A stretch of DNA of 64,000 bases, taken from contig JAYRXC010000024.1 of the NCBI GenBank assembly GCA_041917655.1, positions 1,426-65,425 of the forward strand. Direction: 5' to 3'. Each line of letters opens with the position of its first letter. Position 1 is the stretch's first letter. Shown here in pieces: positions 39,141 through 62,408 of the stretch. This DNA is from Ignavibacteria bacterium (GTDB taxonomy: Bacteria > Bacteroidota > Ignavibacteria > Tepidaquicellales > OLB5). The translations under genes and the position numbers were made by a program. Under the pieces are notes generated by a model. It did no database searches. It saw only the letters and a list, made by a program, of their open reading frames with translations, and was not told the origin of the DNA.

Positions 39141-41084
39141 ATGAAGAATTTAGTACTTATTGTATTTGCCGTTCTTGCTTTATTCAACTCAGATATATAC
39201 TCCAAACGAGGTGACGGAAGTTATAACCAGGTTGATTTTATGCTCACCCTGACAGACGGTATCAAGCTGGATTGTTCAAAATTTGTGCCTTCTGGCACAC
39301 CGCCTTCAGGCGGCTGGCCCTGCGCTGTTATAACACATGGATACGGACTTTCAAAGTACACTGAAATGGAAGAAGCGGAAGATTTTGCTTCCATGGGATA
39401 TTATTCTTTAGTGTACAGCATGCGCGGGCAGGGAGTAAGTGAAGGAGTTTCAAATTTCATCAGTACAATTGAAGCAAATGACCTTAAACAGGTAATTACA
39501 TACATAAAGAACGATGCTAATACCAACGACAATAAAATTTTCATTCACGGCGGCTCACAGGGCGGCATAATACCGTTTATGGCTGTATGTACAGGCATGA
39601 ATGTTAAGACTATAATTACAGATATGGCTTCTCCGGAAGCAGGGTCAAACTGGATCGAGAACGGCGGTATCAAAATGACATTCCTGTGGACATCAAGCTA
39701 TCCAACAAATATTGTAAGATACAATTCTACTGTAGGCCGCTTTCGTTCCTGGATACTCGCAGATACCAAAGAAAAGTGGGACAGCCTTAACTACTACCTG
39801 CCGATTAACAGGGATTTCCTGAACCAGGTTGGCAATTGCCAGATACCAATTCTGATAGAAAATGCATGGCAGGATAAATTTTTCAATACACTGGGAATGA
39901 TAAGAAGCAGTTATGTCCTCCCTTACAATAATATCAGAACCTATTACGGAGCAATGGACGGACATGGCAGCGACTACGACCAGGATGAGGAAGATTTTAA
40001 AGACGGTGTGTACAGTGATTGGATAGAATACCATATAGACGGCGTTAACAACAATGTAATGAATGTGAATCAAAAATTCACATACGCATCCAGCAGCTTT
40101 CCGCTGCAGGATGGTGGAGCTTGGACATGGCAGAGATATGAAAGCCCGGTGTGGCCGCCGGCAGGAGTGCAGAATGTTAAGCTGTATTTCCATCCCGATA
40201 ATAAGCTGCAGGTTTACGGATATGGCGGCTCACAGGCAAACGTTAGCTTCAACAATACCATTCTTGATCCGAATGTAACCATGGAATATCTGGTCAACAC
40301 AGAATTCAGGGGAAACCTGTTCACGTCCAAGTTTCAAAAAAATGAGGTTTCTTTCGATACACCGGCATTGCTGCAGGACGCCAAAATGGCAGGTACTCCT
40401 TACGCTTACCTGTATTATTCATCGACTGCAAGCCAGATGTGCCAGTACAATATGCAGATTTGGGATGTGCTGCCCAATGGCAACGAAAAACTTGTAACAA
40501 GGATCAACTGGACAGACAGAAGCTACACAGCAAACCAGGTTAAAGAAAAATACGTTAACGGGCAGTCATATTCACATATCTTCAGGACAGGAAACAAAAT
40601 AAGGGTTAAGCTGACAAATCTGGATAATGTGCCGCTATACAACTTTGAAGGCGATACCAGTGACACATTCATTAGGACAAATCCATTTATGCTTCCTTCG
40701 CTAAAAGGAGGTACAAACAAAGTTCTTATAAACAACGCATCAAAATCTTACATCGAGCTTCCTTTAATCAACTTTGTGATCGGCGTGAACCAGATATCAC
40801 AGGAGATACCAACAAGGTTCGAGCTGCAGCAAAATTATCCGAATCCGTTTAACCCGGTTACAAAAATAAAGTTCAGCGTTCCTTCAACAGGAAAAAACAA
40901 CTACGTACGAATTACTATATATGATGCTTCCGGCAGGGAAGTAACCACTCTTGTAGATAAGGCTTTCGATGCCGGTGTTTATGAAACTGAATGGGATGCA
41001 GCGGCATACTCAAGCGGAGTTTATTTTTACCGATTGACAAACGGAACGGAAAACTATGTAAGAAAGATGATCTTGATAAAGTAA
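39141..41084 (+). CDS. Secreted alpha/beta hydrolase (CocE/NonD / X-Pro dipeptidyl-peptidase S15-like) with a T9SS C-terminal domain
   Basis: Signal peptide, nucleophile elbow 'HGGSQGG', a C-terminal beta-sandwich, then 'LQQNYPNPFNPVTKIKFSVP...GVYFYRL...RKMILIK'. Confidence 0.8.
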   Translation: MKNLVLIVFAVLALFNSDIYSKRGDGSYNQVDFMLTLTDGIKLDCSKFVPSGTPPSGGWPCAVITHGYGLSKYTEMEEAEDFASMGYYSLVYSMRGQGVSEGVSNFISTIEANDLKQVITYIKNDANTNDNKIFIHGGSQGGIIPFMAVCTGMNVKTIITDMASPEAGSNWIENGGIKMTFLWTSSYPTNIVRYNSTVGRFRSWILADTKEKWDSLNYYLPINRDFLNQVGNCQIPILIENAWQDKFFNTLGMIRSSYVLPYNNIRTYYGAMDGHGSDYDQDEEDFKDGVYSDWIEYHIDGVNNNVMNVNQKFTYASSSFPLQDGGAWTWQRYESPVWPPAGVQNVKLYFHPDNKLQVYGYGGSQANVSFNNTILDPNVTMEYLVNTEFRGNLFTSKFQKNEVSFDTPALLQDAKMAGTPYAYLYYSSTASQMCQYNMQIWDVLPNGNEKLVTRINWTDRSYTANQVKEKYVNGQSYSHIFRTGNKIRVKLTNLDNVPLYNFEGDTSDTFIRTNPFMLPSLKGGTNKVLINNASKSYIELPLINFVIGVNQISQEIPTRFELQQNYPNPFNPVTKIKFSVPSTGKNNYVRITIYDASGREVTTLVDKAFDAGVYETEWDAAAYSSGVYFYRLTNGTENYVRKMILIK

Positions 41085-41219: not shown

Positions 41220-42215
41220 ATGAAAAAACACATTTCTATTTTATGCGCTATTACCCTTGTTGCATTGTTTTTCGGGTTTTCGGGATCTGATAAGAATCCA
41301 TCAGACAGGGATCCAAACTATGTATCAAACACAAACAACGCAAACATAAAAGAAGTAAAAGGCGCACCGCAGACAGTATTTTCAAGCACACTTTCAGAAT
41401 CATTTGAAGGCGTAACATTTCCGCCCGCAGGCTGGACAAAGATCCAGGTTGCAGCAGGCGCTACAGGCTGGGAAAGACAGGTTGCAGGCACAACACCGGT
41501 TCCGGGATTTAACGGCGGTTCAATAATATGTCCGGTTGGCGGCGGAACAGCAGTTGCTTTCTGTAACTACTTAACCGGCGGTTCCTCTTCAAACGACGAG
41601 TGGCTTATTACCCCACAGATCACAAACGTTCAGCCCGGCGATTCATTGACCTTCTGGTTAAGGAAATTCGGTAACTATGTTGATCACATTGATGTTAAGA
41701 TCTCAACAACAACACCAACAGTTGCGGCTATGACAACAACAGTTCAGGTTTTGAACTTCGCTGCTGCTGATTCAGGATACATTCAGTACAAATACAACAT
41801 TGGTTCACTCGTTCCTGCAGGTTCAAACATCTACATTGGTTTCAGGCAGTGGGTTCTCGATGCATTCAATGACGGCGCATCATTCTGCCTCGACCTTGTA
41901 AGAGTTACAGCAAACACAGTAGGCGTAACACATAACGGAACAGAAGTTCCTGCAAACTACGATCTTTCACAGAACTATCCTAACCCGTTTAACCCGTCAA
42001 CAGTTATAAACTTCAGCATTCCTAAAGCAGGAAACGTAAAGCTGGCAGTTTATGACGCTCTTGGCAATGAAGTTGAAACAATACTCAACGCTTACGAGCA
42101 GCCGGGTAATTACACAGCTAACTTCAACGCATCAAAACTCTCAAGCGGAATTTACTTCTATAAACTGATAGCAAGTGACTTCACCGCAACAAAGAAAATG
42201 ATGCTTGTAAAATAA
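41220..42215 (+). CDS. Secreted protein with an N-terminal 'ESFEG..FPP.GW' (choice-of-anchor-J-like) domain and a T9SS C-terminal domain
   Basis: Signal peptide, 'ESFEGVTFPPAGWTKI', 'NDEWLITPQI', and a C-terminal 'LSQNYPNPFNPSTVINFSIP...GIYFYKL...KKMMLVK'. Confidence 0.8.
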   Translation: MKKHISILCAITLVALFFGFSGSDKNPSDRDPNYVSNTNNANIKEVKGAPQTVFSSTLSESFEGVTFPPAGWTKIQVAAGATGWERQVAGTTPVPGFNGGSIICPVGGGTAVAFCNYLTGGSSSNDEWLITPQITNVQPGDSLTFWLRKFGNYVDHIDVKISTTTPTVAAMTTTVQVLNFAAADSGYIQYKYNIGSLVPAGSNIYIGFRQWVLDAFNDGASFCLDLVRVTANTVGVTHNGTEVPANYDLSQNYPNPFNPSTVINFSIPKAGNVKLAVYDALGNEVETILNAYEQPGNYTANFNASKLSSGIYFYKLIASDFTATKKMMLVK

Positions 42216-42237
42216 TATAGCTTTATTTTTACACAAA

Positions 42238-42266
42238 GGGACTGCCTTTAAAGCAGTCCCTTTTTT
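42238..42266. terminator. Bidirectional rho-independent terminator
   Basis: Perfect 8-bp stem gggactgc / gcagtccc with loop ctttaaa, an A-run before and T6 after. Lies between convergent genes. Confidence 0.8.
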
Positions 42267-42282
42267 ATTGCCATAGATCCAA

Positions 42283-42900
42283 CTAAAACCGTATCCTCAA
42301 CTTGTAATAATAATTGACCTGGCGGAATATCTTCTCTGTGCCTTCGTTCAGTATTTTCTTCTGCAAGAACTGCAGTACAGCATTCTTGCAGAGAAATGAA
42401 ATGATCTGCTGCAGCATCGGCGGGAATATTTTCATATAACGGAAAACTGACTCGATACCCAATACTGCGGCACTTTGAAGCGCCATGCTTCTGAAATGCT
42501 CCTTCACGGCTTTCACGGGTACAAAATAGCTCATGTTGTGGTAGGCGCTTATATCTATAAAGCTGAATGGTGTTATGTTGAAGGCGGGAGTGTAGTTAAC
42601 GATTGCGTATCTATCCCAGAAACCGCCGAAACGAATGTTTGAACGGAAAGATGAAACCGGGTCAAACTTCTCAACCTGTTCACTTTTCTGCGGCGCGAAC
42701 ATGGTAAGCTCATAACGGTAGAATTCAATATTTGGCGGTAATGACGTTTCATCAGGGTTCACTTTTATTAACGAACTTTTACGGCTGGCATCAGGTTGTG
42801 CAGTATGCAGAATCTCCTCAACGGCAGCCTTATCCTGTGAATACAGGCTAAAGCTCAACGCAGTGATCAGAAGAATATTTTGTAAAAAGTTCTTCAACAT
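42283..42900 (-). CDS. Hypothetical secreted protein (205 aa)
   Basis: Signal-like N-terminus (ILLITALSFSLYSQD). No recognisable motifs. Confidence 0.55.
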   Translation of the reverse strand: MLKNFLQNILLITALSFSLYSQDKAAVEEILHTAQPDASRKSSLIKVNPDETSLPPNIEFYRYELTMFAPQKSEQVEKFDPVSSFRSNIRFGGFWDRYAIVNYTPAFNITPFSFIDISAYHNMSYFVPVKAVKEHFRSMALQSAAVLGIESVFRYMKIFPPMLQQIISFLCKNAVLQFLQKKILNEGTEKIFRQVNYYYKLRIRF

Positions 42901-43097
42901 TCTGCTCCATTTTTTTGAATTCCTGTTATTCTACCCTACGCTAATATCTTTTCTGCTCATAACTCCTTTTGAAACTGAATCTCTTTCTGTTCATATACGT
43001 TTAAAATGCATAAATCGGATTTAAGAATCAAATTAATATGCTCCGGCACTGCACTTACCCTGCCTTTTGGAAAAAGATAAGGTCTCAAAAGTGCTTT

Positions 43098-43126
43098 GTC
43101 ATTCCTGCGAAGGCAGGAATCTTGAG
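43098..43126. repeat. REP-like palindromic element, family A (canonical copy)
   Basis: gtcattcctgcgaaggcaggaatcttgag, with stem attcctgc / gcaggaat. The flank 'ctcaaaagtgctttgtc' is also shared with the 20.2-kb copy. Confidence 0.7.
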
Positions 43127-43170
43127 GAAATTTACATTTTTTTCTTGGACATAACAAATAGTATTGCCCA

Positions 43171-43196
43171 TAAAAAAACCCGGCTATAAACCGGGT
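43171..43196 (-). terminator. Rho-independent terminator after wecB
   Basis: The minus strand reads acccgg-tttatag-ccgggt followed by T7. Confidence 0.6.
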
Positions 43197-43223
43197 CAAG
43201 AAAATTCTGTATAATTTTTATAC

Positions 43224-44405
43224 TTACATAAACGAATACTCTGTTTGTATTCCGTAGAATTTCTTCAGCAGCTCATAGATGAGGTAGCTTGAGTCGCCGA
43301 ATCCGTACGTATAGTTGTACTTCGATTGATGTACCTTCCTGTAGTCAATAGCCTCGGTCAGGAATTCTGTAATGACAGGCTTCTCAATCGGAAGAAGCTT
43401 AGCGTTCTTCTTCAGCACTTCGGGGCGTTCAGTTGTTTTCCTCAACACTCCGCACGGCACGTTGAAGAATAATGACTCTTCCTGCAAGCCGCCGGAATCA
43501 GTTAGAATACATCCAGCATTCTTAACATAGCCCAGCATTTCAAAGTAATCATGGATTGGCTTCATTATGATAAGCTTCTTGTGGCCATTACCGTTCATCA
43601 CTTCATCGAAGCTGCGCTGTATCATGGGATTCGGATGCATGAGGTGAAGTATCTCCGTGTAGCCGTCAACATCATCCATTACTGTATTCAGGACCCGGGC
43701 ATAATCTGCCACGTAGCCCCAGTTTTCCCTGCGGTGGAATGTGCTCAGTATATAATTCTTCTGTACCGGTTCTTTAATTTTCTTTTCTTTTATCAGGGTG
43801 AATATAGCGTCATTGATCGTATTACCGATCACAAATATCTTGTCATGCTTAATGCCCTCGTTGATGAGATTATCGCGGTTAATGCCTTTGGGCGCGAAGT
43901 GCCATGTAGCCATACGCGCGACTGATTCCCTCATAAACTCCTCTGGGAACGGGTTCATCTTATCCAGCGTCCTTAAGCCTGCCTCTGCGTGGAATACCGG
44001 TATCTGGTTCAGGAATCCCCACAGCGCACCTGCGAAAGCGGAAGCTGTATCGCCCTGCACAATAATACCATGCAGGTTATCCTTCTTAACCGGCGACTTC
44101 TCACCGAACTTCTCGTTGAAATCGTTAAGCAGGTGCGCAATAAGCTCGTTGAGATCGCTGGAGCGGTTTGGTTTCTCGGTAGCGGTAATATCCGGGTGAA
44201 TGCCGATGTTTGAGAGTATATCGCCCGATATCTTCTGCTGCGCTGTGTTATAAAGCAGCGGGTAAAATTCATCCGATTTCTTAAGAATCCGGTATAATAC
44301 GAACAGCTTAAGTATCTCCGGCCTGGTGCCAAAGAAGAAGACAATTACCTTTTTCCCTTTAAGATCTTCGGGATTTAAACCTATATTTATATTTTCCTGA
44401 CCCAT
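43224..44405 (-). CDS. wecB: UDP-N-acetylglucosamine 2-epimerase (non-hydrolysing)
   Basis: 'FGTRPEILKL', 'VQGDTASAFAGAL', 'HAEAGLRT', 'FPEE..R', 'TFHRREN', 'TDSGGLQEE'. Confidence 0.9.
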   Translation of the reverse strand: MGQENINIGLNPEDLKGKKVIVFFFGTRPEILKLFVLYRILKKSDEFYPLLYNTAQQKISGDILSNIGIHPDITATEKPNRSSDLNELIAHLLNDFNEKFGEKSPVKKDNLHGIIVQGDTASAFAGALWGFLNQIPVFHAEAGLRTLDKMNPFPEEFMRESVARMATWHFAPKGINRDNLINEGIKHDKIFVIGNTINDAIFTLIKEKKIKEPVQKNYILSTFHRRENWGYVADYARVLNTVMDDVDGYTEILHLMHPNPMIQRSFDEVMNGNGHKKLIIMKPIHDYFEMLGYVKNAGCILTDSGGLQEESLFFNVPCGVLRKTTERPEVLKKNAKLLPIEKPVITEFLTEAIDYRKVHQSKYNYTYGFGDSSYLIYELLKKFYGIQTEYSFM

Positions 44406-44499
44406 AATTTAAATTTTCACGTAACAAAGATAAGTAACTAAACTATAAGATAAAACCACATTTAATACCGATTTCACGTGAGAAATACAATAAACGGCT

Positions 44500-44535
44500 T
44501 AAAAAAAAGAAGGCGGCCTATGTTCAGACCGCCCC
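44500..44535 (-). terminator. Possible terminator between the GT2 synthase gene and wecB
   Basis: The minus strand has a short GC stem ggcgg / ccgcc followed by 'ttcttttttttaa'. The stem is only 5 bp, so this is weak. Confidence 0.4.
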
Positions 44536-44570
44536 CGTGTACCATGGTATGTATTTCTAAAACTTTTCGA

Positions 44571-45905
44571 TCAATAGTGATCGGTTGATTCCCAAACGAT
44601 CTTGTTCTTCATGTTCATGAATACCTTCAGAGCGCGGAACGTTGCGAAGAAGTTTATCAGGTTATCGAAGTTCAGCCTGATAAGACTAAAGAACGCGTAC
44701 TTGAGTCCGTACCAGCTGTAGGTGAAGATGAACCGGTGTACAAGCCTCCAGACCATGAAGAAGAAACATGCCCACAGGAAGAACCATAACGCTGTGTTCT
44801 GTTCTACCGCAGATTCAAATACTTTTATTCCCAACCCGAAACCAAGCAGGTACAGCAGGAAGAGCGCGAATACAAGATTGCTAAGCAGCACCATAAAATT
44901 GCTGAATATGGTTTTCCTGTCACGCATGAGGAAGTACTTTGTTTTAAGGTTACCTGCCCATTTGTGCATCTTCCAGTTCTGGAAGCAGATGCCTGCTGTC
45001 CACCTTGAGCGCTGTTTAACAGCCGCCCAGAATGTATTGGGGAAGTACTCGCCGGTCGCAACACGTGAGTTTGGATTGTTCTTATCTATTAATAGATTTA
45101 TATAAGCCGTCTTGTAGCCCATCTTAAAGAGCCTTAAGCCAAGCTCGTAATCTTCAGTTAAGTTCGCTTCGTTAAACACCTGCGGGTAGTTCTTATCAAG
45201 GTTCATGAAGATTTCCCTGCGGAAGCTCATGCCTGTGCCTGCAAACGGTATGAATACCTTTAATGCCTGCCTTACGATAAGATCCTTCGAATGCACTTCA
45301 GCGAAAGCGTCACAGTAAGTTCTGTGAATGAACTTGCCCCTGTCATCTTTGATAGGCACTACAGGGATCTGTACTGCGTCGATTCCCTGGTGTGTTATAA
45401 GATAGTTATCTATCTTAAGCGTTAATGGATGTATAAAATCCTCGCTGTCGTGAATTGAGATAACATCGAAGTTTTTGCCGTTATCGTGCTCAAACCTTTT
45501 TATTGATGCGTAAACGTTATTGAGGTTATCGGCCTTTGTTGTGGGGCCGTCGTGTGAGTTCACGCAGATTACAACCTTGTTGTTCTTCTGCGCGATACGT
45601 TTAACAACTTCAAGTGTCTTTGTGTCATTAGGATAAATACCCACGAATATAGTGAAGTTGCTGTACCTCATTTTGCTTAGCGCGTAGGTGAGCGTTCTGC
45701 CTATTACCTTGTACTCGCGCCATGCGCAGATAACAAGAGCTATCGAGTTTTCACTTGCTGCCAGCACGTCATCAACGTTCGGCAGGCTCCTGTTATACTT
45801 CCAGCGGTTGAACCAGTAAAGCAGGTCAACCATTACATCGTCAATTCCGCTTACTATCAGCAGGATTGAACAGATCCAAAGTAACACTGTGAAAACTTCT
45901 TGCAT
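44571..45905 (-). CDS. Membrane-embedded processive family-2 glycosyltransferase, NfrB-like polysaccharide synthase
   Basis: N-terminal TM helix plus the 'SGIDDVMVDLLYW' motif I recall as characteristic of NfrB-type proteins. 'HDSEDFIHP' (DxD-like), 'TEDYELGLRL' (TED), 'QRSRWTAG' (QxxRW), and three or four C-terminal TM helices. Confidence 0.8.
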   Translation of the reverse strand: MQEVFTVLLWICSILLIVSGIDDVMVDLLYWFNRWKYNRSLPNVDDVLAASENSIALVICAWREYKVIGRTLTYALSKMRYSNFTIFVGIYPNDTKTLEVVKRIAQKNNKVVICVNSHDGPTTKADNLNNVYASIKRFEHDNGKNFDVISIHDSEDFIHPLTLKIDNYLITHQGIDAVQIPVVPIKDDRGKFIHRTYCDAFAEVHSKDLIVRQALKVFIPFAGTGMSFRREIFMNLDKNYPQVFNEANLTEDYELGLRLFKMGYKTAYINLLIDKNNPNSRVATGEYFPNTFWAAVKQRSRWTAGICFQNWKMHKWAGNLKTKYFLMRDRKTIFSNFMVLLSNLVFALFLLYLLGFGLGIKVFESAVEQNTALWFFLWACFFFMVWRLVHRFIFTYSWYGLKYAFFSLIRLNFDNLINFFATFRALKVFMNMKNKIVWESTDHY

Positions 45906-45979
45906 ATAATTTTATTTATACTTTATAAATTTTTTTAAACTTTGCGAAACGCGCTGCTCTTGTTTACGGAATCTGCTGC

Positions 45980-46954
45980 TTAAATCTCTTTCCAGATATT
46001 GAAAACGAACCCTGCTTTGATCTGGAATGAATTTTTCCTGTCTCCGAAGAAATAAATTTTGTAGGTTGGCTCAAGGAATATCACCGGGAAATCCATTACA
46101 TTAGGCTTGAACCTGATGCCTGTGCCAACTTCGAAGTAATTGTTATAGTCCACTTTTCTGCCGTCAAACTGTCCTGATTCAAACAGGTAGTTCTCTACGT
46201 ATGAATAACCTTTAGTGTGGAACCTGATGACCTGCTGCAGCATTCCCTGCAGGAATGCGTTCTTATATTTATAATCATACATTGCCGCATAATATATATC
46301 AAGGTACAGGCTGGTTTTGGAATTTTTATCAGCTTTAAGCTTTGCATCACCAAACCTGTTGAAATACACAAGCATCGGCTTGAAGTTTATTTTGTTTGAG
46401 TCAAGATCTATCTGCCTGGTGTACCCGATCCTGCCTTCAAAAAACAGGTTTTTCATCAGGTAGTATCGCATGAAAAAGCCGATCTCTACAAACCTGTCAT
46501 TGTATATCAGAGCCTTGGTGGATCTTGAATCAGCGTACACATCAAGGTAAGGTCCTAAAAAGAAGTCCGGGCCTATACCGAAATGCACATGGCCAATGAG
46601 GTTTGCTATATAATTTTCCTGGAATGAATCGTAAAAGTTATGGAAATATATATCGAGATACTTTTTTGATTTGGATGACTTTTGTTTAAGTGCGAAAGAG
46701 CCGGAAAGATCCAAACCGGTTGATTGCTCTGAATTGCCTGATGAAAGCCCTGTGGCTTCCGTTTCCGGCAAGTAGCTGTAGTTCCCTATTCTCTTGTTTT
46801 CTTTATCCTTAAGCTTTAAGGATACTTCATTTTTCCCGAAATCAAAAGAGGAAGAATTGCGATATGTTTCATTGCCTGCAATTCCCTGGGAAAAGCAGAA
46901 AGATGAAAATACAGCAAGAAGAAGAAGAAAAATTGGGAGTAATCTCTTTAACAT
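45980..46954 (-). CDS. Secreted protein, probable outer-membrane beta-barrel
   Basis: Signal peptide (LLPIFLLLLAVFSSFCFSQG). Abundant alternating aromatic/aliphatic beta-strand segments with Y/F/G-rich turns. Lies directly upstream of the GT2 synthase. Confidence 0.55.
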   Translation of the reverse strand: MLKRLLPIFLLLLAVFSSFCFSQGIAGNETYRNSSSFDFGKNEVSLKLKDKENKRIGNYSYLPETEATGLSSGNSEQSTGLDLSGSFALKQKSSKSKKYLDIYFHNFYDSFQENYIANLIGHVHFGIGPDFFLGPYLDVYADSRSTKALIYNDRFVEIGFFMRYYLMKNLFFEGRIGYTRQIDLDSNKINFKPMLVYFNRFGDAKLKADKNSKTSLYLDIYYAAMYDYKYKNAFLQGMLQQVIRFHTKGYSYVENYLFESGQFDGRKVDYNNYFEVGTGIRFKPNVMDFPVIFLEPTYKIYFFGDRKNSFQIKAGFVFNIWKEI

Positions 46955-47232
46955 TTTTTTAGTTAATGATTCGAAAATAGCTGCTTATTTAAAGTGTTAC
47001 TTTACTACCAAGCCATTTAAATGCTTAATAATATTTACTTATACCCCCATTACAATAATAATCAATTTTTTCCTAAAATCAAACTGCTCTTTCGTTTGGG
47101 GTACACTAAATTAGCGTGTTCGGTTACTGTTCTCAATACCACTAAAACGGTATATATGCCGAAAATCGCTAACTGACTGCGTGTGTTTTCGCTAAGAATT
47201 GCTAAAACACACAAAAAATCATATTTTTGTAT

Positions 47233-48252
47233 ATGTCATTAAAGATACTTGCTATTGAATCTTCATGCGATGAAACTTCTGCTGCAATTCTGGATAATGA
47301 AAACATCCTTTCTAATGTCATATCATCGCAGTACTTTCACAAAGAGTATGGAGGCATTGTACCCGAGCTGGCTTCCAGGGCACATGTAACTACAATAGAA
47401 AAAATAACAGACGAAGCATTCCGGCTCGCGGGAATCTCTCCGCAGGAAATTGAGCTTGCCGCAGCTGCGCATGGACCCGGATTAATTGGCTCTCTGCTCG
47501 TGGGACTCAACTTCGCGAAAGGATTCGCAGTTTCACGCAACATCCCGTTTGTTGGTATAGATCATATCGAGTCTCACCTGTACTCATCTTTTATCGGCAG
47601 AAGCGAAGTCGATTATCCATTCATAGCATTGGTAGTATCAGGCGGGCATACGATAATTTTCCTCGCTGAAAGCGAAATACAATACAGGGTGCTGGGAACA
47701 ACACAGGATGATGCAGCAGGTGAAGCGTTTGATAAGGTCGCAAAAATGCTGGGACTTGAGTATCCAGGCGGGCCGCTGATAGATAAACTGGCAAAAGATG
47801 GTAACAGCGATTTCCACAAATTCCCCGTTTCGCATATTAAAGAAAGTCCGTACGATTTTTCCTTCAGCGGAATCAAAACTTCTGTACTTTATTACCTGAA
47901 GAAAAACTTCCCTTCCGGAGTAACAGGCAGCGACCTTAATAATATCTCGGCGTCATTTCAAAAAGCGGTTATCAGCTCGCTTGTAAGTAAAACAATTAAG
48001 GCAGCAAAAGACCATAACATCAAACGGATATCAGTTTCGGGAGGAGTTTCGGCCAACTCAGCTCTTCGTGCAGAATTCAGCAACTACGAAAAAGAAGGTT
48101 ACACTATCAGCTTCCCGGAAAAGATATATTCAACGGATAACGCCGCTATGATAGGTTACACCGCATACCTGAAATACAGGGATAACAGCACGGCAATTCC
48201 GACAAATGCCCTGCTTGAAAGCGCATACGCACGGTTCAGATATAACAGCTAA
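47233..48252 (+). CDS. tsaD: tRNA N6-adenosine threonylcarbamoyltransferase
   Basis: 'ILAIESSCDETSAA', 'GGIVPELASRAH', 'GPGLIGSLLVG', 'IDHIESH', 'LVVSGGHT', 'DDAAGEAFDKVAK'. Confidence 0.95.
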   Translation: MSLKILAIESSCDETSAAILDNENILSNVISSQYFHKEYGGIVPELASRAHVTTIEKITDEAFRLAGISPQEIELAAAAHGPGLIGSLLVGLNFAKGFAVSRNIPFVGIDHIESHLYSSFIGRSEVDYPFIALVVSGGHTIIFLAESEIQYRVLGTTQDDAAGEAFDKVAKMLGLEYPGGPLIDKLAKDGNSDFHKFPVSHIKESPYDFSFSGIKTSVLYYLKKNFPSGVTGSDLNNISASFQKAVISSLVSKTIKAAKDHNIKRISVSGGVSANSALRAEFSNYEKEGYTISFPEKIYSTDNAAMIGYTAYLKYRDNSTAIPTNALLESAYARFRYNS

Positions 48253-49752: not shown

Positions 49753-50655
49753 ATGCTGCTGATACTTACATCTATATTTGCGTACCATAACAGCACGATC
49801 AGATTCTGGTTTGTGTTCTGTGGGATTAATTTGGTTTTGATATGGTTCATCTGGCGGCTGGCTGATTCATACGGAAGAAAAACCGAATCAGTTAAGGATG
49901 AAAATATCAGGAACAGCTCTCCCCTCAAAATACTGCGCTATTGGTACGGTGTAGCAGCGATACTATATATATTCAAGCAAGTGTATATAATCGTATTTTC
50001 GCTTAAGCCTATGGACTGGGATAGTGTATTTATGCGGATGGACTTCGGTTTGTTCGGACTGAATCCGACTCAATGGGCTTACCAGTTCGCAAATCCATAC
50101 CTTACAGAGTTCCTGCAGATCGTTTACCTGTATTATTACCCTATGATAGTTGTGTTCGGGCTGGAATTATATCTCGGGCACAGGTATAAGGAATTCAAAT
50201 ATACCATATTCATTCTGTTCTTCAGCTTCTTCCTCAGCTATATACTCTATCTCTTTTTTCCGGCAAACGGGCCGCGTTTCCACCTGCATGATTTCTACTC
50301 AATAAACTCGGAGCTGCCGGGAATATTTTTAACCGAACATTTGCGGAATTTCATAAACTTCGGGGAGTCAATACCGCCGGGGGTGGTTAACCCGCAGGAC
50401 TATGTACAGCGTGATGCGATGCCAAGCCTGCACACCATCACGGCATTTTTGATAATGTACCTCTCTTTCAAGTTCAGGTCAAAATCATTTTACTTCTACC
50501 TTCCTTATTTTTTCTGCATGGTTGCGGCTACAATATACCTGAGGTATCACTACGTAGTGGATATTTTTGGCGGACTGATAATCTGCGCCTTTACGATAAT
50601 GATGGGCATGCTTGTTTACAGGAACAGGGAAATCCTTACAGTTAAAAATACCTGA
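49753..50655 (+). CDS. PAP2-superfamily membrane protein (lipid phosphatase / phosphotransferase-like)
   Basis: Multi-TM protein with C-terminal PAP2 motifs 'MPSLHT' and 'RYHYVVDIFGG'. Confidence 0.7.
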   Translation: MLLILTSIFAYHNSTIRFWFVFCGINLVLIWFIWRLADSYGRKTESVKDENIRNSSPLKILRYWYGVAAILYIFKQVYIIVFSLKPMDWDSVFMRMDFGLFGLNPTQWAYQFANPYLTEFLQIVYLYYYPMIVVFGLELYLGHRYKEFKYTIFILFFSFFLSYILYLFFPANGPRFHLHDFYSINSELPGIFLTEHLRNFINFGESIPPGVVNPQDYVQRDAMPSLHTITAFLIMYLSFKFRSKSFYFYLPYFFCMVAATIYLRYHYVVDIFGGLIICAFTIMMGMLVYRNREILTVKNT

Positions 50656-51694
50656 AAACTATTTTTTGAGCAACTAGTCCCGGAACCAATGGCTTTGTTC
50701 GTTTAACTACCCCGCTTGTCCCGTCAATTATTACCAAGAATCCGTTACTGTGCCACAATCCCAAATACAGTTCATTTGCGCTTGATTCATAAGCAATAGT
50801 CTGTATATTTTCTACTGAGGCAGCGGTGTATATTTTAGTGAAGACAAAAGTACCTGAATTAGCGGCTGCAAGCCATACTTCATTCCCGCCAACGACCGAA
50901 TAAAAACTGTTCTGTGTTCTAAATTCAAGCACATTGATGCCAAATGATGCTGAAGGTACAGCAAATGAATCAGTTATAGTTACAGTTGGCGGATCTACTC
51001 TGTAAATATTTTTGTTAGTATTTGTCGAAATAAAAATTCCGTTCACATTGTAGATCGCACTCACAGGCACAGCAGGAAAGAACTGCTTTGTTACCGCATA
51101 GTTAGTTTCATCAATAAATGCCGTTGAGGGTTCGTTATTCAGCGCAGATCTTGTTACAATGTACTTGTTGAAACCGTACAATACGTTTGCCGGATTGCTC
51201 CCAACTTCAACCGTATCCTTAATAATATTAAAATCCAGATCGAGCACTGTAATATTCGTACTGCCTGAATTGCCAACAACAATTCTGTTGTTGTTTATCG
51301 CAAATCCTTTTGGGGCATTCCCGAAATATAGTGAATCTTCTATACCATTGCTTACTGGATCAATTTTATAAATTGTTCCGTTACTTCCGGGGTTTCCGCT
51401 GGATGTTAAGTATATTTTTCTGTCTGAATTCAACTTCATATCACCCGGGTTGCCCTGTAGTGTCTTTCCGGAATTAAATGTTCTGAAAACATTATCAGTA
51501 ACCGAATCCCTGGCAGCATCATAATATGCATAATCAGTGAATGCAGGCGCGCCATAAAGTATATAAGCCCCCGCCAATGGATTACCGGCTGAATTATTTA
51601 CTGTCGGCCCCTCTGAATCGCCGCATGCAGCCAGGATAATAGTAAAGCAGAGCATCAGGCTATGCAAAATTGATTTTGTTATGGAGTATTTCAT
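50642..51694 (-). CDS. Beta-propeller (YncE-like) lipoprotein, paralogue of 60854..61945
   Basis: I prefer the ATG at 51694, which gives a lipoprotein signal (MLCFTIILAAC-GDS). Shares 'GTIYKI(D/N)P', 'ITVLD..(F/L)NII.D...VGSNP' and a C-terminal 'K(I/M)(V/A)F(R/K)Y' with the riboswitch-linked paralogue. Confidence 0.75.
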   Translation of the reverse strand: MKYSITKSILHSLMLCFTIILAACGDSEGPTVNNSAGNPLAGAYILYGAPAFTDYAYYDAARDSVTDNVFRTFNSGKTLQGNPGDMKLNSDRKIYLTSSGNPGSNGTIYKIDPVSNGIEDSLYFGNAPKGFAINNNRIVVGNSGSTNITVLDLDFNIIKDTVEVGSNPANVLYGFNKYIVTRSALNNEPSTAFIDETNYAVTKQFFPAVPVSAIYNVNGIFISTNTNKNIYRVDPPTVTITDSFAVPSASFGINVLEFRTQNSFYSVVGGNEVWLAAANSGTFVFTKIYTAASVENIQTIAYESSANELYLGLWHSNGFLVIIDGTSGVVKRTKPLVPGLVAQKIVFRYF

Positions 51695-51753
51695 CTTAAG
51701 GTGTATTAGAATTTTGTATGAGGATTTTTTTTGAATAATGGTTTTCTTTTTTT

Positions 51754-51872
51754 CCGTTTCACGTTTGACGTTTGACATTTCACGTTTGACGTTTGACATT
51801 TCACGTTTGATGTTTGACATTTCACGTTTGACGTTTCACATTTCACGTTTCACATTTCACATTTCACGTTTC
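51754..51872. repeat. Heptamer tandem array (about 17 copies of acRtttS, with the first 9 organised as three 21-bp units)
   Basis: Counted from the sequence: acgtttg acgtttg acatttc, three times (the third unit has atgtttg), then acgtttg acgtttc acatttc acgtttc acatttc acatttc acgtttc. Two further 'ttttgacatttg' copies lie at 51906-51917 and 51920-51931. Confidence 0.9.
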
Positions 51873-53140: not shown

Positions 53141-53212
53141 TCCCGCGCAGGCGGGCTTTTGTCAATCCCGCTCAGGCAGCTTTTTGTCATTCCCGCAAAG
53201 GCGGGAATCTCC
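53138..53212. repeat. Three tandem REP-like hairpins, family A variants
   Basis: cattcccgcgcaggcgggc / gtcaatcccgctcaggcagc / gtcattcccgcaaaggcgggaatc, each preceded by 'ttttg'. They lie immediately upstream of the dCMP deaminase start. Confidence 0.7.
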
Positions 53213-58865: not shown

Positions 58866-60854
58866 TTAGTATTTAATATTTATTTCTGTTTTGAAATTTC
58901 TAAGCGGCATCGGGTAGCCCGGCAAGACGCTGTAGCTTTCGTTTAATAAGTTGTTGGCTATGAACTTCAGTCCGACTTCAATATCTCCGGCCTGAAAGCC
59001 CAGCCCTATATTTCCGTCAAGGACATCATACCTCGGAATGAATTCCGTATTTTCAAAATTGGTATATCTCCTTGTGGAAAAATTGTAAAACAGGCTAAAA
59101 GATACAAATTTTATAAATTTACTTGTAGTCAAATAATTCAGCATAATTGAAGCTTTTAGCATCTCTTTTGGCAGGTAAATAAGCTGCTTATTGTAAGAAG
59201 GGTCTCCCGGGTAATCTTCGTTTTTCTTCATAGCGCTGCCAAAAGTATAATTTATAGCGGTTTGCGTTGTGAGCTTCTTAGCCAGTGCAAACACCGAGCG
59301 CAGGCTTACATCAATACCTTCGCTTCTTACTTTGCCTACATTTATGGGTTTCCATATTGCTGCCGATTCAGGCGTCCACAAAATGCGGTCTGTTGTATTG
59401 ATATTGTAATAGGATATTTCAAGCTCATGTTCGGCGGCCAGATTTAGCCTGTAATAGATTCCTGCGTCAAAGCTGATGGAGCGCTCAGGCTTCAAATCCG
59501 GATTGCCGATATCCTTCCAGTAAAGCTCGTTGAATGTCGGCGCGCTGAAGTTGTTGCCAAAGGATGATTTGAAATGCAGGTCAGCAGCTGCAAATGGTTT
59601 GATATTCACTCCAAGCTTGCCTGTTACAACATTTTTGGTGTTAATGTTGGAAAAATGGTCATACCGCACGGTTGGGTAGATAGTGAAAACCGGCGAGCCC
59701 TTTCGCAGGAATTCGAATTTCCCCGCCCATAGAGCAGCAGCCTGGAATTGTTTGCCTTCATCGGTCTCATTGCTTGTGATATTACTGAACGATACTTCAG
59801 CGCCTGCATCGAAGCTGTAATTCTTCTCAGGCACAAAGCTGAACACATTTGATGCAGAATAATTATTCAGCCTGTAGAAGCTGTTGATGGGCGAAGAAAA
59901 CCCAAATGTTGCCGGATCAAAGTATTTCTGCAGCGCGTTGCGGTATCCAAGTGTTGACTTCATCGTAAGAACACGAGAGATCCTGCGAAACAGTGAAGCG
60001 CCCGAAAAAATATTTTTATCTATCTGCCTCGCTATTCCCGTAGCATAGCCGATGTCAATCCCGGGTACTCCTCTTTCGAAATGAGTATAGTTAGCAAACA
60101 GTTCCAGCATTACTTTATCACTTTCGGAAAAAGTTAAATCAGCATCGAATGACTGCGTGTTATAGTCAGAGTTTTCCCTGTTCCTCAACACTTTGTTAAC
60201 ACCGCTATTGAGGTAGTAATCAAAATCATTCTTTGCCCTGTTATCCGAAAATGAAATGCTGTAGCCGGCGGTTGAAACTCCTTTCAGCCTGAATCCCTGC
60301 GAGAATCTGCCGAAGAAATTTTTTTGACCGTAAGAACCTAAACCTGCCTTCAATGTGAATCCAAACGGCGCGGCAGGAACATTGGTTTTGGTGATAATAT
60401 TAATTACCCCGCCGATAGCTTCGCTGCCGTAGAGCGCCGATGAACCGCCTTTGGAGATCTCGATGCGTTCAATATTATCCAGATCGTAAAGTGAAAGATC
60501 GACCTGAGCATTCTGGCTGCTGTTAAGCCTGATGCCATTCAGCAGGATAAGCGTATGCTCGCTTTGAGTGGCATTTAGTGATATGGTCTTGGTGCCGGAG
60601 TTAAATCCGTAATCCTTAACATACACTGCGTCACTCAGTTTCAGCGCATCCGGCAGCGAAGTGCCGTTAAGCGATGAAATGAACTCCCCATCCATTACCT
60701 GAATCTTATTTGGCGCGGTAGAGTTTGTCATCTTTACACGGTTTGATTCAACAACTATCTCGCCGGTAACGACGCTATCCATCCTTTGCGAATACAACTC
60801 CCCGCAGAGAACAGCTGCCATGAGAAGAACAAGTATATTGATGTAACATCTCAT
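58866..60854 (-). CDS. TonB-dependent outer-membrane receptor (BtuB-like by riboswitch context)
   Basis: Signal peptide, plug domain ('ISKGGSSALYGSEAIGGVINIITK'), a 22-strand-type barrel, and the C-terminal 'NFKTEINIKY'. The ATG at 60854 overlaps the upstream stop by 1 nt (TGATG). Confidence 0.9.
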   Translation of the reverse strand: MRCYINILVLLMAAVLCGELYSQRMDSVVTGEIVVESNRVKMTNSTAPNKIQVMDGEFISSLNGTSLPDALKLSDAVYVKDYGFNSGTKTISLNATQSEHTLILLNGIRLNSSQNAQVDLSLYDLDNIERIEISKGGSSALYGSEAIGGVINIITKTNVPAAPFGFTLKAGLGSYGQKNFFGRFSQGFRLKGVSTAGYSISFSDNRAKNDFDYYLNSGVNKVLRNRENSDYNTQSFDADLTFSESDKVMLELFANYTHFERGVPGIDIGYATGIARQIDKNIFSGASLFRRISRVLTMKSTLGYRNALQKYFDPATFGFSSPINSFYRLNNYSASNVFSFVPEKNYSFDAGAEVSFSNITSNETDEGKQFQAAALWAGKFEFLRKGSPVFTIYPTVRYDHFSNINTKNVVTGKLGVNIKPFAAADLHFKSSFGNNFSAPTFNELYWKDIGNPDLKPERSISFDAGIYYRLNLAAEHELEISYYNINTTDRILWTPESAAIWKPINVGKVRSEGIDVSLRSVFALAKKLTTQTAINYTFGSAMKKNEDYPGDPSYNKQLIYLPKEMLKASIMLNYLTTSKFIKFVSFSLFYNFSTRRYTNFENTEFIPRYDVLDGNIGLGFQAGDIEVGLKFIANNLLNESYSVLPGYPMPLRNFKTEINIKY

Positions 60855-61945
60855 CAATTATATTTGAACGCCATTTTCTTAGGAAATTTTCCGCCAATAT
60901 CCGGAAAGGTATTCAGCAGGTTTCCGCTCAGATCATACACCCGTACTTCACCATTTGCCGTGCCGCTTTTGGAATTTGCTATATATATTCTGTGATTGAT
61001 CCTGTCGAACGATATTCCGTAAACATCATCTGTGCCGGTGAACTGGATATTGAATGAGGGGTCTATAGTGCGGGTCTGCACATCCACTTTGTAAACCCTT
61101 TTGCCCACATTGGAAGCAAATGATGTATCTGCAACCCCCAAAACCAGCAGAACATGAGAGTCCACAGCGATCATTGAGCCTATAGCAGGCTCGGGTATGG
61201 ACATTGTCATGGAATCGCCTATGGTATTGAACTGCTGGATTATTGAATAGATCTTTTTGCCGGAATAGGTTGAGATGTATATCCTGTTCTCGCCTTCTGT
61301 AACACAAACCGGCGGTGTATCAAAATAGAATTTGTTGACCTGGTAAGTATTTTTATTAACTATTGCGACAGAGTTTTCAAAAGTATAGCTCTGCTTGGCA
61401 ACGTAGAGATAATCGCCGTAAAGAACGATATCAGATGGATTGCTGCCGACCCGGATGGAATCAGCAATTATATTCAGGTTATTATCAAGCACAGTAATAT
61501 GATCACCGGCTGTATTTGTCACATACAGGTTGCCGTTATATTCACCCGCTGCTGAATATGGATTCGTGCCGAAATTGCGCGAAGTTATGAGCTGGTTTGT
61601 TGATGGGTTTATCTTGTAGATCGTACCGGCCTGTCCGTAAGTTCCCTGGGATATGACAAACAGGGTGCTCCCGTTTAGCAGCATCCCGTCTGGTGTTGAG
61701 TTGAGCGCCATACCGCTGTTTGAATTCTGGAACACATTGGCATTCACAGTACCGCTATCAGTATTTATAAATGCATAGTCGTATGAGGTTGGCTGACCGA
61801 ACGAGCCCTCGTAAAGAACGAAAACTCCTTTTGTTGTAGTGACCGGATTATTGTATACAATTTCTTCTTCACCGCAGCCGGTAAAGAAAACAGCAATAAA
61901 AAATGAGGTAATAAAAAACAAAAAAACTGATTTGAACTTTTTCAT
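60854..61945 (-). CDS. Beta-propeller (YncE-like) lipoprotein, first gene of the cobalamin-riboswitch operon
   Basis: Signal ending in Cys (FFIAVFFTGC-GEEE). Repeated 'G..P..I......LYV.N' blade-like segments. Paralogous to 50642..51694. Confidence 0.75.
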   Translation of the reverse strand: MKKFKSVFLFFITSFFIAVFFTGCGEEEIVYNNPVTTTKGVFVLYEGSFGQPTSYDYAFINTDSGTVNANVFQNSNSGMALNSTPDGMLLNGSTLFVISQGTYGQAGTIYKINPSTNQLITSRNFGTNPYSAAGEYNGNLYVTNTAGDHITVLDNNLNIIADSIRVGSNPSDIVLYGDYLYVAKQSYTFENSVAIVNKNTYQVNKFYFDTPPVCVTEGENRIYISTYSGKKIYSIIQQFNTIGDSMTMSIPEPAIGSMIAVDSHVLLVLGVADTSFASNVGKRVYKVDVQTRTIDPSFNIQFTGTDDVYGISFDRINHRIYIANSKSGTANGEVRVYDLSGNLLNTFPDIGGKFPKKMAFKYN

Positions 61946-62030: not shown

Positions 62031-62114
62031 AAATACATGGTCATATAGAGACAGGGAGTCCCAATTTTTTCAGTTAACATGTAATCTTTGCCCTCGAAGA
62101 TCATTACAGAAGAT

Positions 62115-62285
62115 ATTTCCGGCAGGTCTCCTGGCTTAAGAGCAATTAACGGTAAGTCTTCCCATCAATAAAACGATAGTGACGTAACAAATACCGGTCT
62201 TCTCTATTACAGTTGCGGGGACAGCCCAGGATTATTCAGTATTTTGAACAAGCTTCACCTGGTTCCCTATTATTCACCATTTAAG
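62115..62285 (-). promoter_or_regulatory. Cobalamin (B12) riboswitch
   Basis: The reverse complement contains the hallmark elements in the correct order. These are 'AGGGAACCAGGTGAA' (rc of 62254-62268), 'CCTGGGCTGTCCCCGCAACTGTAA' (rc of 62207-62230), 'GTCACT...GATGGGAAGAC', and the B12 box 'AGCCAGGAGACCTGCC' (rc of 62121-62136). Confidence 0.85.
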
Positions 62286-62408
62286 TTAAGTGAACCGAAA
62301 ATAATTCTCCGCTTTAAGCGGAAGTATAACAAAGAGCTGTTTTACAAAAATAGGGAAATTAATGTTAAAGAGAAATGGAGAATATTCAGACCGTAACTTC
62401 TCAAATTT

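Follow-up and report, generated by a model that had tools for sequence, protein, structure and literature searches.

A 64,000-nt stretch of DNA (the window) from the metagenome-assembled genome of an uncultured Ignavibacteria bacterium carries three consecutive minus-strand genes that probably, though far from certainly, form a reduced Ignavibacteria version of the Nfr-type synthase-dependent exopolysaccharide system. They encode a 324-aa outer-membrane protein (45980..46954), a 444-aa NfrB-type family-2 glycosyltransferase (GT2) that is a putative processive synthase (44571..45905), and WecB, a 393-aa non-hydrolysing UDP-N-acetylglucosamine (UDP-GlcNAc) 2-epimerase (43224..44405). An earlier note on this DNA had delimited three adjacent open reading frames (ORFs) here, and the coordinates agree exactly. 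The reading is built on what is observed: the identities of the genes, the catalytic residues, the fold of the barrel, the missing domain, the signals for operon structure, the conserved synteny and the strong purifying selection. In E. coli the Nfr system comprises the synthase NfrB, the outer-membrane pore NfrA, YbcH, and WecB/NfrC, which supplies UDP-N-acetylmannosamine (UDP-ManNAc), and its product is the phage N4 glycan receptor NGR (PMC8669469, PMC8669472). Eighty loci from species-representative genomes were compared, and the orthologous synthases among them are 48-100% identical to the window's copy. All relatives of the 444-aa protein carry the labels Ignavibacteria, Ignavibacteriae or Chlorobi bacterium OLB5, and a 100% identical copy of the synthase is present on metagenome contigs that reach 1.4 Mb.

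By sequence, the 444-aa protein is a true NfrB homologue. Both of its Pfam matches, Glyco_tranf_2_3 and Glyco_trans_2_3, are membrane GT2 families. E. coli K-12 NfrB aligns over the whole glycosyltransferase and transmembrane region with 36% identity (BLASTP; synthase 13-443, NfrB 23-475, E 2e-87). The earlier note had called the enzyme NfrB-like, and both kinds of comparison favour this over the other synthases: BLASTP E-values were 5.5e-87 for NfrB, 0.008 for PgaC and 6e-4 for BcsA, and profile comparison with hhalign gave NfrB a probability of 100% (E 3e-74, 431 columns) against 78% for PgaC and 45% for BcsA. Five NCBIfam NfrB/PRK14716 models match the protein (E 1e-119 to 1e-65). The best of these is NF011305, one of the short PRK14716-type models (442-502 positions) which the window's synthase resembles, and the score of 399.2 bits is narrowly under its cut-off of 409. 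The E. coli-type model NF008411 is matched at positions 11-470 of 723 with 323 bits; the shortfall against the cut-off of 1170 comes from the C-terminal third of the model, to which nothing aligns. A PDB sequence search returned nothing useful for the synthase. Public annotations of its close relatives read "phage adsorption protein NrfB" or "adsorption protein B", and the family assignment is therefore not new.

The GT2 motifs quoted in the earlier note are all present: SGIDD at residue 19, which corresponds to the SGxDD N-terminal helix of E. coli NfrB, HDSED at 152, TED at 250, and QRSRW at 298 (the QxxRW motif). Residues D153 (DxD), D252 (T250-E251-D252) and W302 (Q298-R-S-R-W302) align with NfrB D169, D267 and W330 and are invariant across 17 orthologues. 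Substitution of these NfrB residues abolishes N4 infection of E. coli (PMC8669469). Hydropathy indicates one N-terminal transmembrane helix and two or three C-terminal ones (about 332-390), and the predicted topology is an N-terminal transmembrane helix, a cytoplasmic GT-A domain, and C-terminal transmembrane helices. The loss of the C-terminal MshEN domain, also proposed in the earlier note, is evident from the alignment, which stops at NfrB residue 475 of 745. The C-terminus of the synthase (...VWESTDHY) aligns to NfrB 469-475, and nothing in the protein matches NfrB 476-745. Unlike the 745-aa E. coli protein, the window's synthase thus has neither the linker nor the MshEN domain that binds cyclic di-GMP (c-di-GMP). 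In all tested respects other than MshEN and the narrowly missed curated cut-off, the sequence fits membership of the NfrB glycosyltransferase family.

A variant of the synthase was seen in nine Ignavibacteriaceae loci (L050, L055, L067, L071, L072, L075, L082, L083, L084; proteins P0210-P0230), in which the enzyme is split into two proteins at the loop directly before TED, from residue ~240 to ~243 in window numbering. The first protein has a transmembrane helix, the N-terminal half of the glycosyltransferase with DxD, a second transmembrane helix, and a SPOR-like C-terminal domain (PF05036 in P0230). The second has a long Glu/Lys-rich N-terminal region followed by the C-terminal half (TED, QxxRW and the transmembrane helices). 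In L071 that N-terminal region matches the transposase-type DUF772 (PF05598, E 3e-9), and L050 and L075 are visibly similar there. The 485-aa orthologues of the I. album type have a 40-aa insertion at the loop where the other synthases split. This may be a natural split glycosyltransferase, perhaps derived from a mobile-element insertion.

The third gene had been called a UDP-GlcNAc 2-epimerase, and its 393-aa product exceeds the cut-off of the WecB equivalog model TIGR00236 (234 bits, cut-off 210), with just 57 bits on the NeuC model. It also matches PF02350 (E 2e-66) and aligns over its full length with E. coli WecB (31% identity, E 3e-47). The WecB motifs are retained, namely GTRPEILK (GTRPExxK, containing the K15 equivalent), GDT, HAEAGLRT (HxEAGLRT), HRRE and DSGGLQEE (DSGGxQEE). 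In E. coli, WecB K15 is needed for N4 sensitivity (PMC8669472). Judged by these matches, the protein is a WecB equivalog and would supply UDP-ManNAc.

The 324-aa protein had been described as a signal-peptide protein with barrel-like strands, and structure prediction returned a 12-stranded membrane beta-barrel. The protein starts with a hydrophobic, signal-like segment. Residues 22-93 then make up a Ser/Asn/Lys-rich linker (about 70 aa) that is disordered, with a predicted local distance difference test (pLDDT) score <50. The AlphaFold2 model, based on a 65-sequence alignment, then shows 12 beta-strands over residues 98-323 with block-mean pLDDT mostly >90. The strands alternate as in a membrane barrel, with Phe, Leu and Ile on one face and a lumen face rich in Tyr, Phe, Gly, Asp, Glu, Lys, Asn and Arg. 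In Foldseek searches of the PDB the best matches were small, mostly 12-stranded outer-membrane barrels: the invasin and intimin beta-domains, BrkA, FapF, NanC and PcoB (E 6e-5 to 1e-3; target-normalised TM-score up to 0.59). By class, the closest structures to the model are NanC/KdgM sugar porins, autotransporter/intimin beta-domains, FapF and PcoB. Sequence identity to these is only 7-13%, no family is shared with them, and none of them is known as the partner of a GT2 synthase. No glycan exporter of known type is among the top 50 PDB matches. The protein is accordingly predicted with high confidence to be a 12-stranded outer-membrane barrel.

No Pfam, NCBIfam or PDB sequence match was found for the 324-aa protein. 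Its family profile reached a probability of 1.4% against whole NfrA and 3.9% against the C-terminal 420 aa of NfrA, and profile comparison showed no relationship to the barrels at the C-termini of the E. coli proteins NfrA, PgaA and BcsC (probability at most 3.9%). Homologues of the barrel are detectable in 110 cases, all in Ignavibacteria-type genomes. What these have in common is a conserved C-terminal domain (about 230 aa), and the N-terminal part in front of it varies. That part is either a low-complexity linker of ~70 aa, as in the window, or one, two or three tetratricopeptide repeat (TPR) modules, which give proteins of about 340, 435 and 520 aa respectively. TPR is present in 46 of the 65 aligned homologues and absent from the 324-aa protein; the window's copy has lost this part. 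A profile search of 1.84 billion representative proteins yielded just 153 barrel matches at E <= 1e-3, and in all the distant ones that were scanned the family's unannotated C-terminal domain is joined to a variable-length TPR array, in proteins that reach 1405 aa. From the fold model, the TPR-bearing homologues and the absence of detectable homology to known exporters it follows that the protein is an architectural analogue of NfrA, PgaA and BcsC which belongs to a small, undescribed barrel family. Of the earlier proposal that it is a smaller NfrA-like partner, the size difference stands (324 aa against the 990 aa of NfrA, which has TPR and a 16-strand barrel); the likeness to NfrA is one of analogy, without detectable homology.

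The three genes occur together far more often than chance would allow. Of the 37 orthologous loci with a readable upstream side, 35 have the barrel gene as the next gene upstream of the synthase gene, and wecB follows the synthase gene in 32 of the 36 assessable ones (165 bp downstream in the window). This order of barrel gene, synthase gene and wecB recurs throughout the class. In relatives the barrel gene often overlaps the synthase start codon, by 4-7 bp (L026, L037, L050, L071, L083). In the window they are separated by a 74-bp spacer (45906..45979, minus strand) in which no terminator-like hairpin was found, so that the two genes are probably co-transcribed. In the clade of I. album and Ca. 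Tepidiaquacella all three genes are only 24-40 bp apart and their surroundings are different.

The pairing of barrel and synthase extends beyond the orthologues. In a sister clade of 27 loci (L043-L081; labelled Chlorobiaceae, Bacteroidota or Ignavibacteriales) the synthase is ~38% identical to that of the window, and a TPR-barrel gene precedes it in 25 of the 27. By hhalign, this TPR-barrel and the window's barrel family are homologues (probability 96.5%, E 7e-10). Downstream of the synthase gene, 25/27 sister-clade loci have a gene for a single-domain CheY-like receiver, which suggests phosphorelay control in place of c-di-GMP. Since the pair is kept in the sister clade while wecB is replaced by the receiver, barrel and synthase are the ancient module, and the third gene is variable.

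Four synthases with 56-64% identity (L030, L031, L033, L042) are paralogues: their genomes also hold a barrel-linked copy, and neither a barrel gene nor wecB is found near them. In L031 and L042 (62-64% identity) the paralogue lies downstream of genes for an SLT lytic transglycosylase and a PAP2 phosphatase, and of a gene set resembling a sigma/anti-sigma factor pair. The L030 paralogue has just a similar 316-aa upstream gene, and the L033 paralogue has none of the SLT/PAP2 context. The 299-aa protein encoded upstream of the paralogues in L031 and L042 was considered as a possible barrel for its C-terminal Phe and was rejected, as Pfam identifies it as the PAP2 phosphatase.

In the proposed mechanism, WecB would convert UDP-GlcNAc to UDP-ManNAc in the cytoplasm, and the inner-membrane NfrB-like GT2 would polymerise a ManNAc-containing chain from it and push the chain across the inner membrane. 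The 12-stranded barrel, co-transcribed with the synthase, would let the chain pass the outer membrane, with the disordered linker serving as the tether in this genome in place of TPR repeats. Control would be transcriptional or constitutive, the barrel and synthase genes forming a unit that ends in a terminator and wecB forming a second one. We infer the donor sugar, processive polymerisation, export through the barrel, and the product and its location from E. coli genetics and from gene linkage. NfrB depends on UDP-ManNAc from WecB, and nfrB and wecB are linked in genomes which have no other wecB (PMC8669469, PMC8669472). Several observations weigh against this model. One concerns the synthase itself, for which just three or four transmembrane helices are predicted, few for a stand-alone translocation channel.

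A second is the strong terminator that parts the synthase gene from wecB (44499..44536, minus strand). The hairpin (44536-44509) has 12 bp in its stem, 7 of them G-C, and a loop of 4 nt, and a run of eight T residues follows it. The earlier note had listed a "possible weak terminator" at 44500-44535; the hairpin is real, and it is not weak. It is kept in at least 14 related loci with compensatory changes in the stem (GGGGCGGTC/GGCCGCC, GGAGGCAGTC/GGCTGCCTC, GGGGTGGTC/GGTCACCC), and because it recurs in this way it is regarded as a selected structure. It is absent where the gap is 24-40 bp, in the I. album clade. In the window's clade the barrel and synthase genes are thus likely on one transcript and wecB on another. 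In addition, in L005, L011, L017, L028 and L029 wecB is either parted from the synthase gene by unrelated genes for cargo of the type IX secretion system (T9SS) or missing from the vicinity, and no sister-clade locus has an adjacent wecB.

These findings favour an alternative in which the polymer is built on a sugar other than ManNAc (for example GlcNAc or a hexose) and wecB is a bystander that feeds ManNAc or ManNAcA into lipopolysaccharide (LPS) or capsule. The 62-64% identical paralogues without an adjacent wecB point the same way, as does the fact that the wider region is syntenic anyway, with tsaD, mgtE and the PAP2 gene conserved alongside. This alternative is nevertheless unlikely. The frequency with which wecB follows orthologous synthase genes speaks against it, as does the distant I. 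album clade, where the close spacing persists with no terminator and in different surroundings. WecB and the synthase are also alike in being under unusually strong purifying selection. Finally, NfrB of E. coli cannot do without WecB, and other phyla also have the two genes linked (PMC8669469).

Other observations bear on the role of the barrel. It has 12 strands, not 16-18 as in PgaA, BcsC, NfrA and AlgE, it has no sequence relationship to known exporters, and the window's copy lacks the TPR scaffold. In L023 and L032 there is no barrel gene at all (a 300-bp gap separates tsaD from the synthase gene), yet the synthase gene and wecB are kept. The barrel might then serve as an anchor or assembly factor, or be a small, unrelated porin, and the polymer would be periplasmic or exit otherwise. 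The small strand number and the short loops fit this alternative, which we consider unlikely on balance. The barrel-synthase pairing is maintained down to 38% synthase identity, and the start/stop overlaps suggest translational coupling. Among the 34 residues that are invariant in the family, 24 face the lumen, 9 are in the short loops (2-12 aa) and only 1 faces the lipid. A conserved polar and aromatic lumen in the model fits a substrate-conducting channel, although it is no proof of one. The TPR modules of most homologues reproduce the architecture of known exporters, and 12-stranded NanC-/KdgM-type barrels are among the fold matches. Barrels of these two types conduct oligosaccharides. The 324-aa protein therefore remains a candidate glycan export pore.

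Selection was assessed by counting codon differences between the window and locus L001, which are ~83% identical in nucleotide sequence over 12.8 kb. The synthase has 87 synonymous differences and 0 non-synonymous ones, and WecB has 128 and 1. The corresponding counts are 178 and 11 for MgtE, 101 and 22 for PAP2, 129 and 52 for TsaD, 95 and 54 for the barrel protein, and 62 and 37 for a 205-aa protein encoded beyond wecB. Changes in the barrel protein are mostly in the N-terminal linker: the barrel domain has 97% amino acid identity, the whole protein 87%. Within the close clade, essentially every comparison ranks the synthase first in conservation among the proteins of the block, with rare ties with WecB; it is 95-96% identical where TsaD is 66-71% and MgtE 85-88% identical. 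The tsaD gene is essential. Going by these substitution patterns, the cluster genes clearly have a function and are under tight constraint. That the synthase is conserved almost absolutely is unusual where the product is an optional biofilm polymer, and a constraint of this degree suits a core function in the envelope better than a matrix polymer that could be dispensed with. A glycan or glycoconjugate that belongs to the core of the envelope and is possibly essential, in place of a facultative secreted exopolysaccharide of the Nfr/NGR type, would also agree with the missing regulatory domain and with the paralogue that the same genomes have beside the envelope-acting SLT transglycosylase and PAP2 phosphatase genes, and it is partly compatible with the preferred model; as a replacement for that model it is quite improbable, since QxxRW, TED, DxD and the NfrB homology indicate a processive polymer synthase, the outer-membrane barrel partner implies export, and sequence cannot decide essentiality.

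With the c-di-GMP module missing, control of the proposed Nfr-type system is expected to be transcriptional or constitutive. At the L001 locus, a GGDEF, EAL or PilZ domain was found in none of the genes called up to about 8 kb to the left and right of the cluster, and hence no dedicated c-di-GMP input such as a DgcJ-like cyclase was seen there. A search of 42000-47400 with Rfam found no family at threshold and no riboswitch, c-di-GMP riboswitches included; the sub-threshold matches reflect just the two terminators of this region. The second of these is a terminator-like hairpin with a 9-bp stem and a T-run directly 3' of wecB (43177..43197, minus strand). The barrel gene and tsaD diverge from a 272-bp intergenic region (46955..47226), the presumed promoter site of the barrel-synthase unit; sigma-70-like matches in it are at chance level. 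The Bacteroidetes-type promoter TAnnTTTG has one copy upstream of wecB (44425-44432). With 71 matches in the window against 65 expected it is not enriched, and no promoter is claimed. An 80-aa ORF at 42957-43199 overlaps the terminator of wecB, is not conserved beyond the closest relatives, and is probably no gene.

Compared with the E. coli Nfr system, the window's cluster shares the homologous synthase with its conserved residues, the pairing of that synthase with an outer-membrane beta-barrel protein, and the link to WecB. The differences are in the partners and the arrangement. The barrel gene precedes the synthase gene, where E. coli has nfrB before nfrA; wecB is adjacent; no YbcH homologue was found near the cluster, the sole nearby exported protein being dissimilar; and the host belongs to the Ignavibacteriota instead of the Proteobacteria. 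Overall, the system follows the Nfr logic but lacks both a detectable NfrA homologue and, near the cluster, a YbcH homologue. Synthase-dependent secretion systems of the Pga (PgaA-D), Bcs (BcsA/B/C), Alg and Pel type combine an inner-membrane processive GT2 with an outer-membrane barrel and a periplasmic TPR scaffold. The window's putative synthase and predicted barrel resemble Pga and Bcs in overall logic; TPR is absent from the window's barrel protein and present in most of its homologues. Unlike Pga and Bcs, the window's operon has no PgaD or BcsB partner, PilZ, periplasmic deacetylase or glucanase, similarity of the synthase to PgaC and BcsA is marginal, and the barrel is 12-stranded and not 16-stranded.

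Short synthases of this kind have precedents. Among 1,841 NfrB homologues surveyed by Junkermeier and Hengge (2021), 1,705 have MshEN and about 7% do not, and wecB is found beside nfrB wherever no other wecB is present; the homologues are mainly from Proteobacteria, with rare Gram-positive cases (PMC8669469). The window's synthase resembles the MshEN-less homologues in that it is short, has no c-di-GMP module and has a neighbouring wecB. Neither Ignavibacteria nor the window's barrel family is reported in that survey (PMC8669469), and a literature search on NfrB structure or Ignavibacteria Nfr systems found nothing beyond two 2021 mBio papers. The cluster is a reduced form of a secretion system that is already known and does not represent a new kind. 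The NfrB-like annotation was already in public databases, and MshEN-less forms and the nfrB-wecB linkage in Proteobacteria had been described (PMC8669469). New here is that the known Nfr rules extend to a different phylum, in which the outer-membrane partner is much smaller and non-homologous, no YbcH was found near the cluster, and wecB is uncoupled by a conserved terminator.

A broader reading is plausible, though it falls short of being probable. It takes the barrel as an unannotated class of polysaccharide export pore that co-evolved with NfrB-type synthases across Ignavibacteriota and neighbouring lineages. Such a pore would be a compact 12-strand barrel with a conserved polar and aromatic lumen and a modular periplasmic region of no, one or many TPR. 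The regulatory module would be interchangeable (MshEN in Proteobacteria, the CheY-like receiver gene in the sister clade, none in the window), and the glycan would be a core envelope component.

The genes around the cluster are housekeeping or secreted-protein genes unrelated to it: one flank has tsaD, mgtE and the gene for a PAP2 phosphatase, and the other has genes for T9SS-sorted proteins. The exported 205-aa protein (42283..42900, minus strand) is a possible accessory component. Its gene is syntenic after wecB in at least 10 close-clade loci, even at L028 where wecB is displaced. The family is confined to the window's clade, has no Pfam match and, judging from the codon differences, evolves fast. 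The structural model is moderate (pLDDT 71; a small sheet and two long helices) and has no fold match. The protein was considered as a YbcH analogue and rejected, given the quality of this model, the lack of a fold match, and no sequence similarity to YbcH.

A T9SS-sorted alpha/beta-hydrolase of the CocE/NonD type (Peptidase_S15; 647 aa; 39141..41084, plus strand) is encoded by a class-wide neighbour that is convergent with the cluster in the window's clade and lies outside the operon. Its orthologues are full length with 38-74% identity, and in the I. album and split-synthase clades the gene is the next one after wecB and shares its strand. PgaB, BcsZ and AlgL offer an analogy for the speculation that it modifies the polymer; equally, it may be a mere syntenic peptidase gene. 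Next to it, 41220-42215 (plus strand) encodes a T9SS-sorted 'choice-of-anchor J' protein.

Three further features of the window were recorded. At 51757-51871 the 21-bp unit TTTCACGTTTGACGTTTGACA, which derives from a TTTSACG heptad, occurs in 5.5 tandem copies at or upstream of the start of the minus-strand gene 50642-51820. In the longest ORF the repeat translates as repeated MSNVKRE, and in relatives the gene call starts after the repeat. At 53141-53205 a 25-bp hairpin-containing unit, TCCCGCACAGGCGGGCTTTTGTCAA, occurs in 2.6 intergenic copies, with extra copies of the adjacent sequence in L001. A cobalamin riboswitch (RF00174, 110.7 bits, E 7e-27) lies at 62104-62314 on the minus strand, upstream of the minus-strand genes 60854-61945 and 58866-60857.

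The practical gain is modest, because the synthase was already annotated as NfrB-like and the general principles have been published. The NfrB/NGR pathway is nevertheless a recently recognised and chemically undefined route to an exopolysaccharide, known chiefly as the enterobacterial receptor of phage N4. Its catalytic core is also present, strongly conserved and without the c-di-GMP switch, in a distant uncultured phylum. The cluster offers a minimal set of two or three genes with which the pathway could be reconstituted and its polymer identified. A further suggestion from it is that the outer-membrane exporters of synthase-dependent glycans are more diverse than the 16-18-strand paradigm. 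If the broader reading is true, the near-absolute conservation of the synthase would mean that the glycan is a core component of the envelope in these bacteria and not an optional biofilm matrix.

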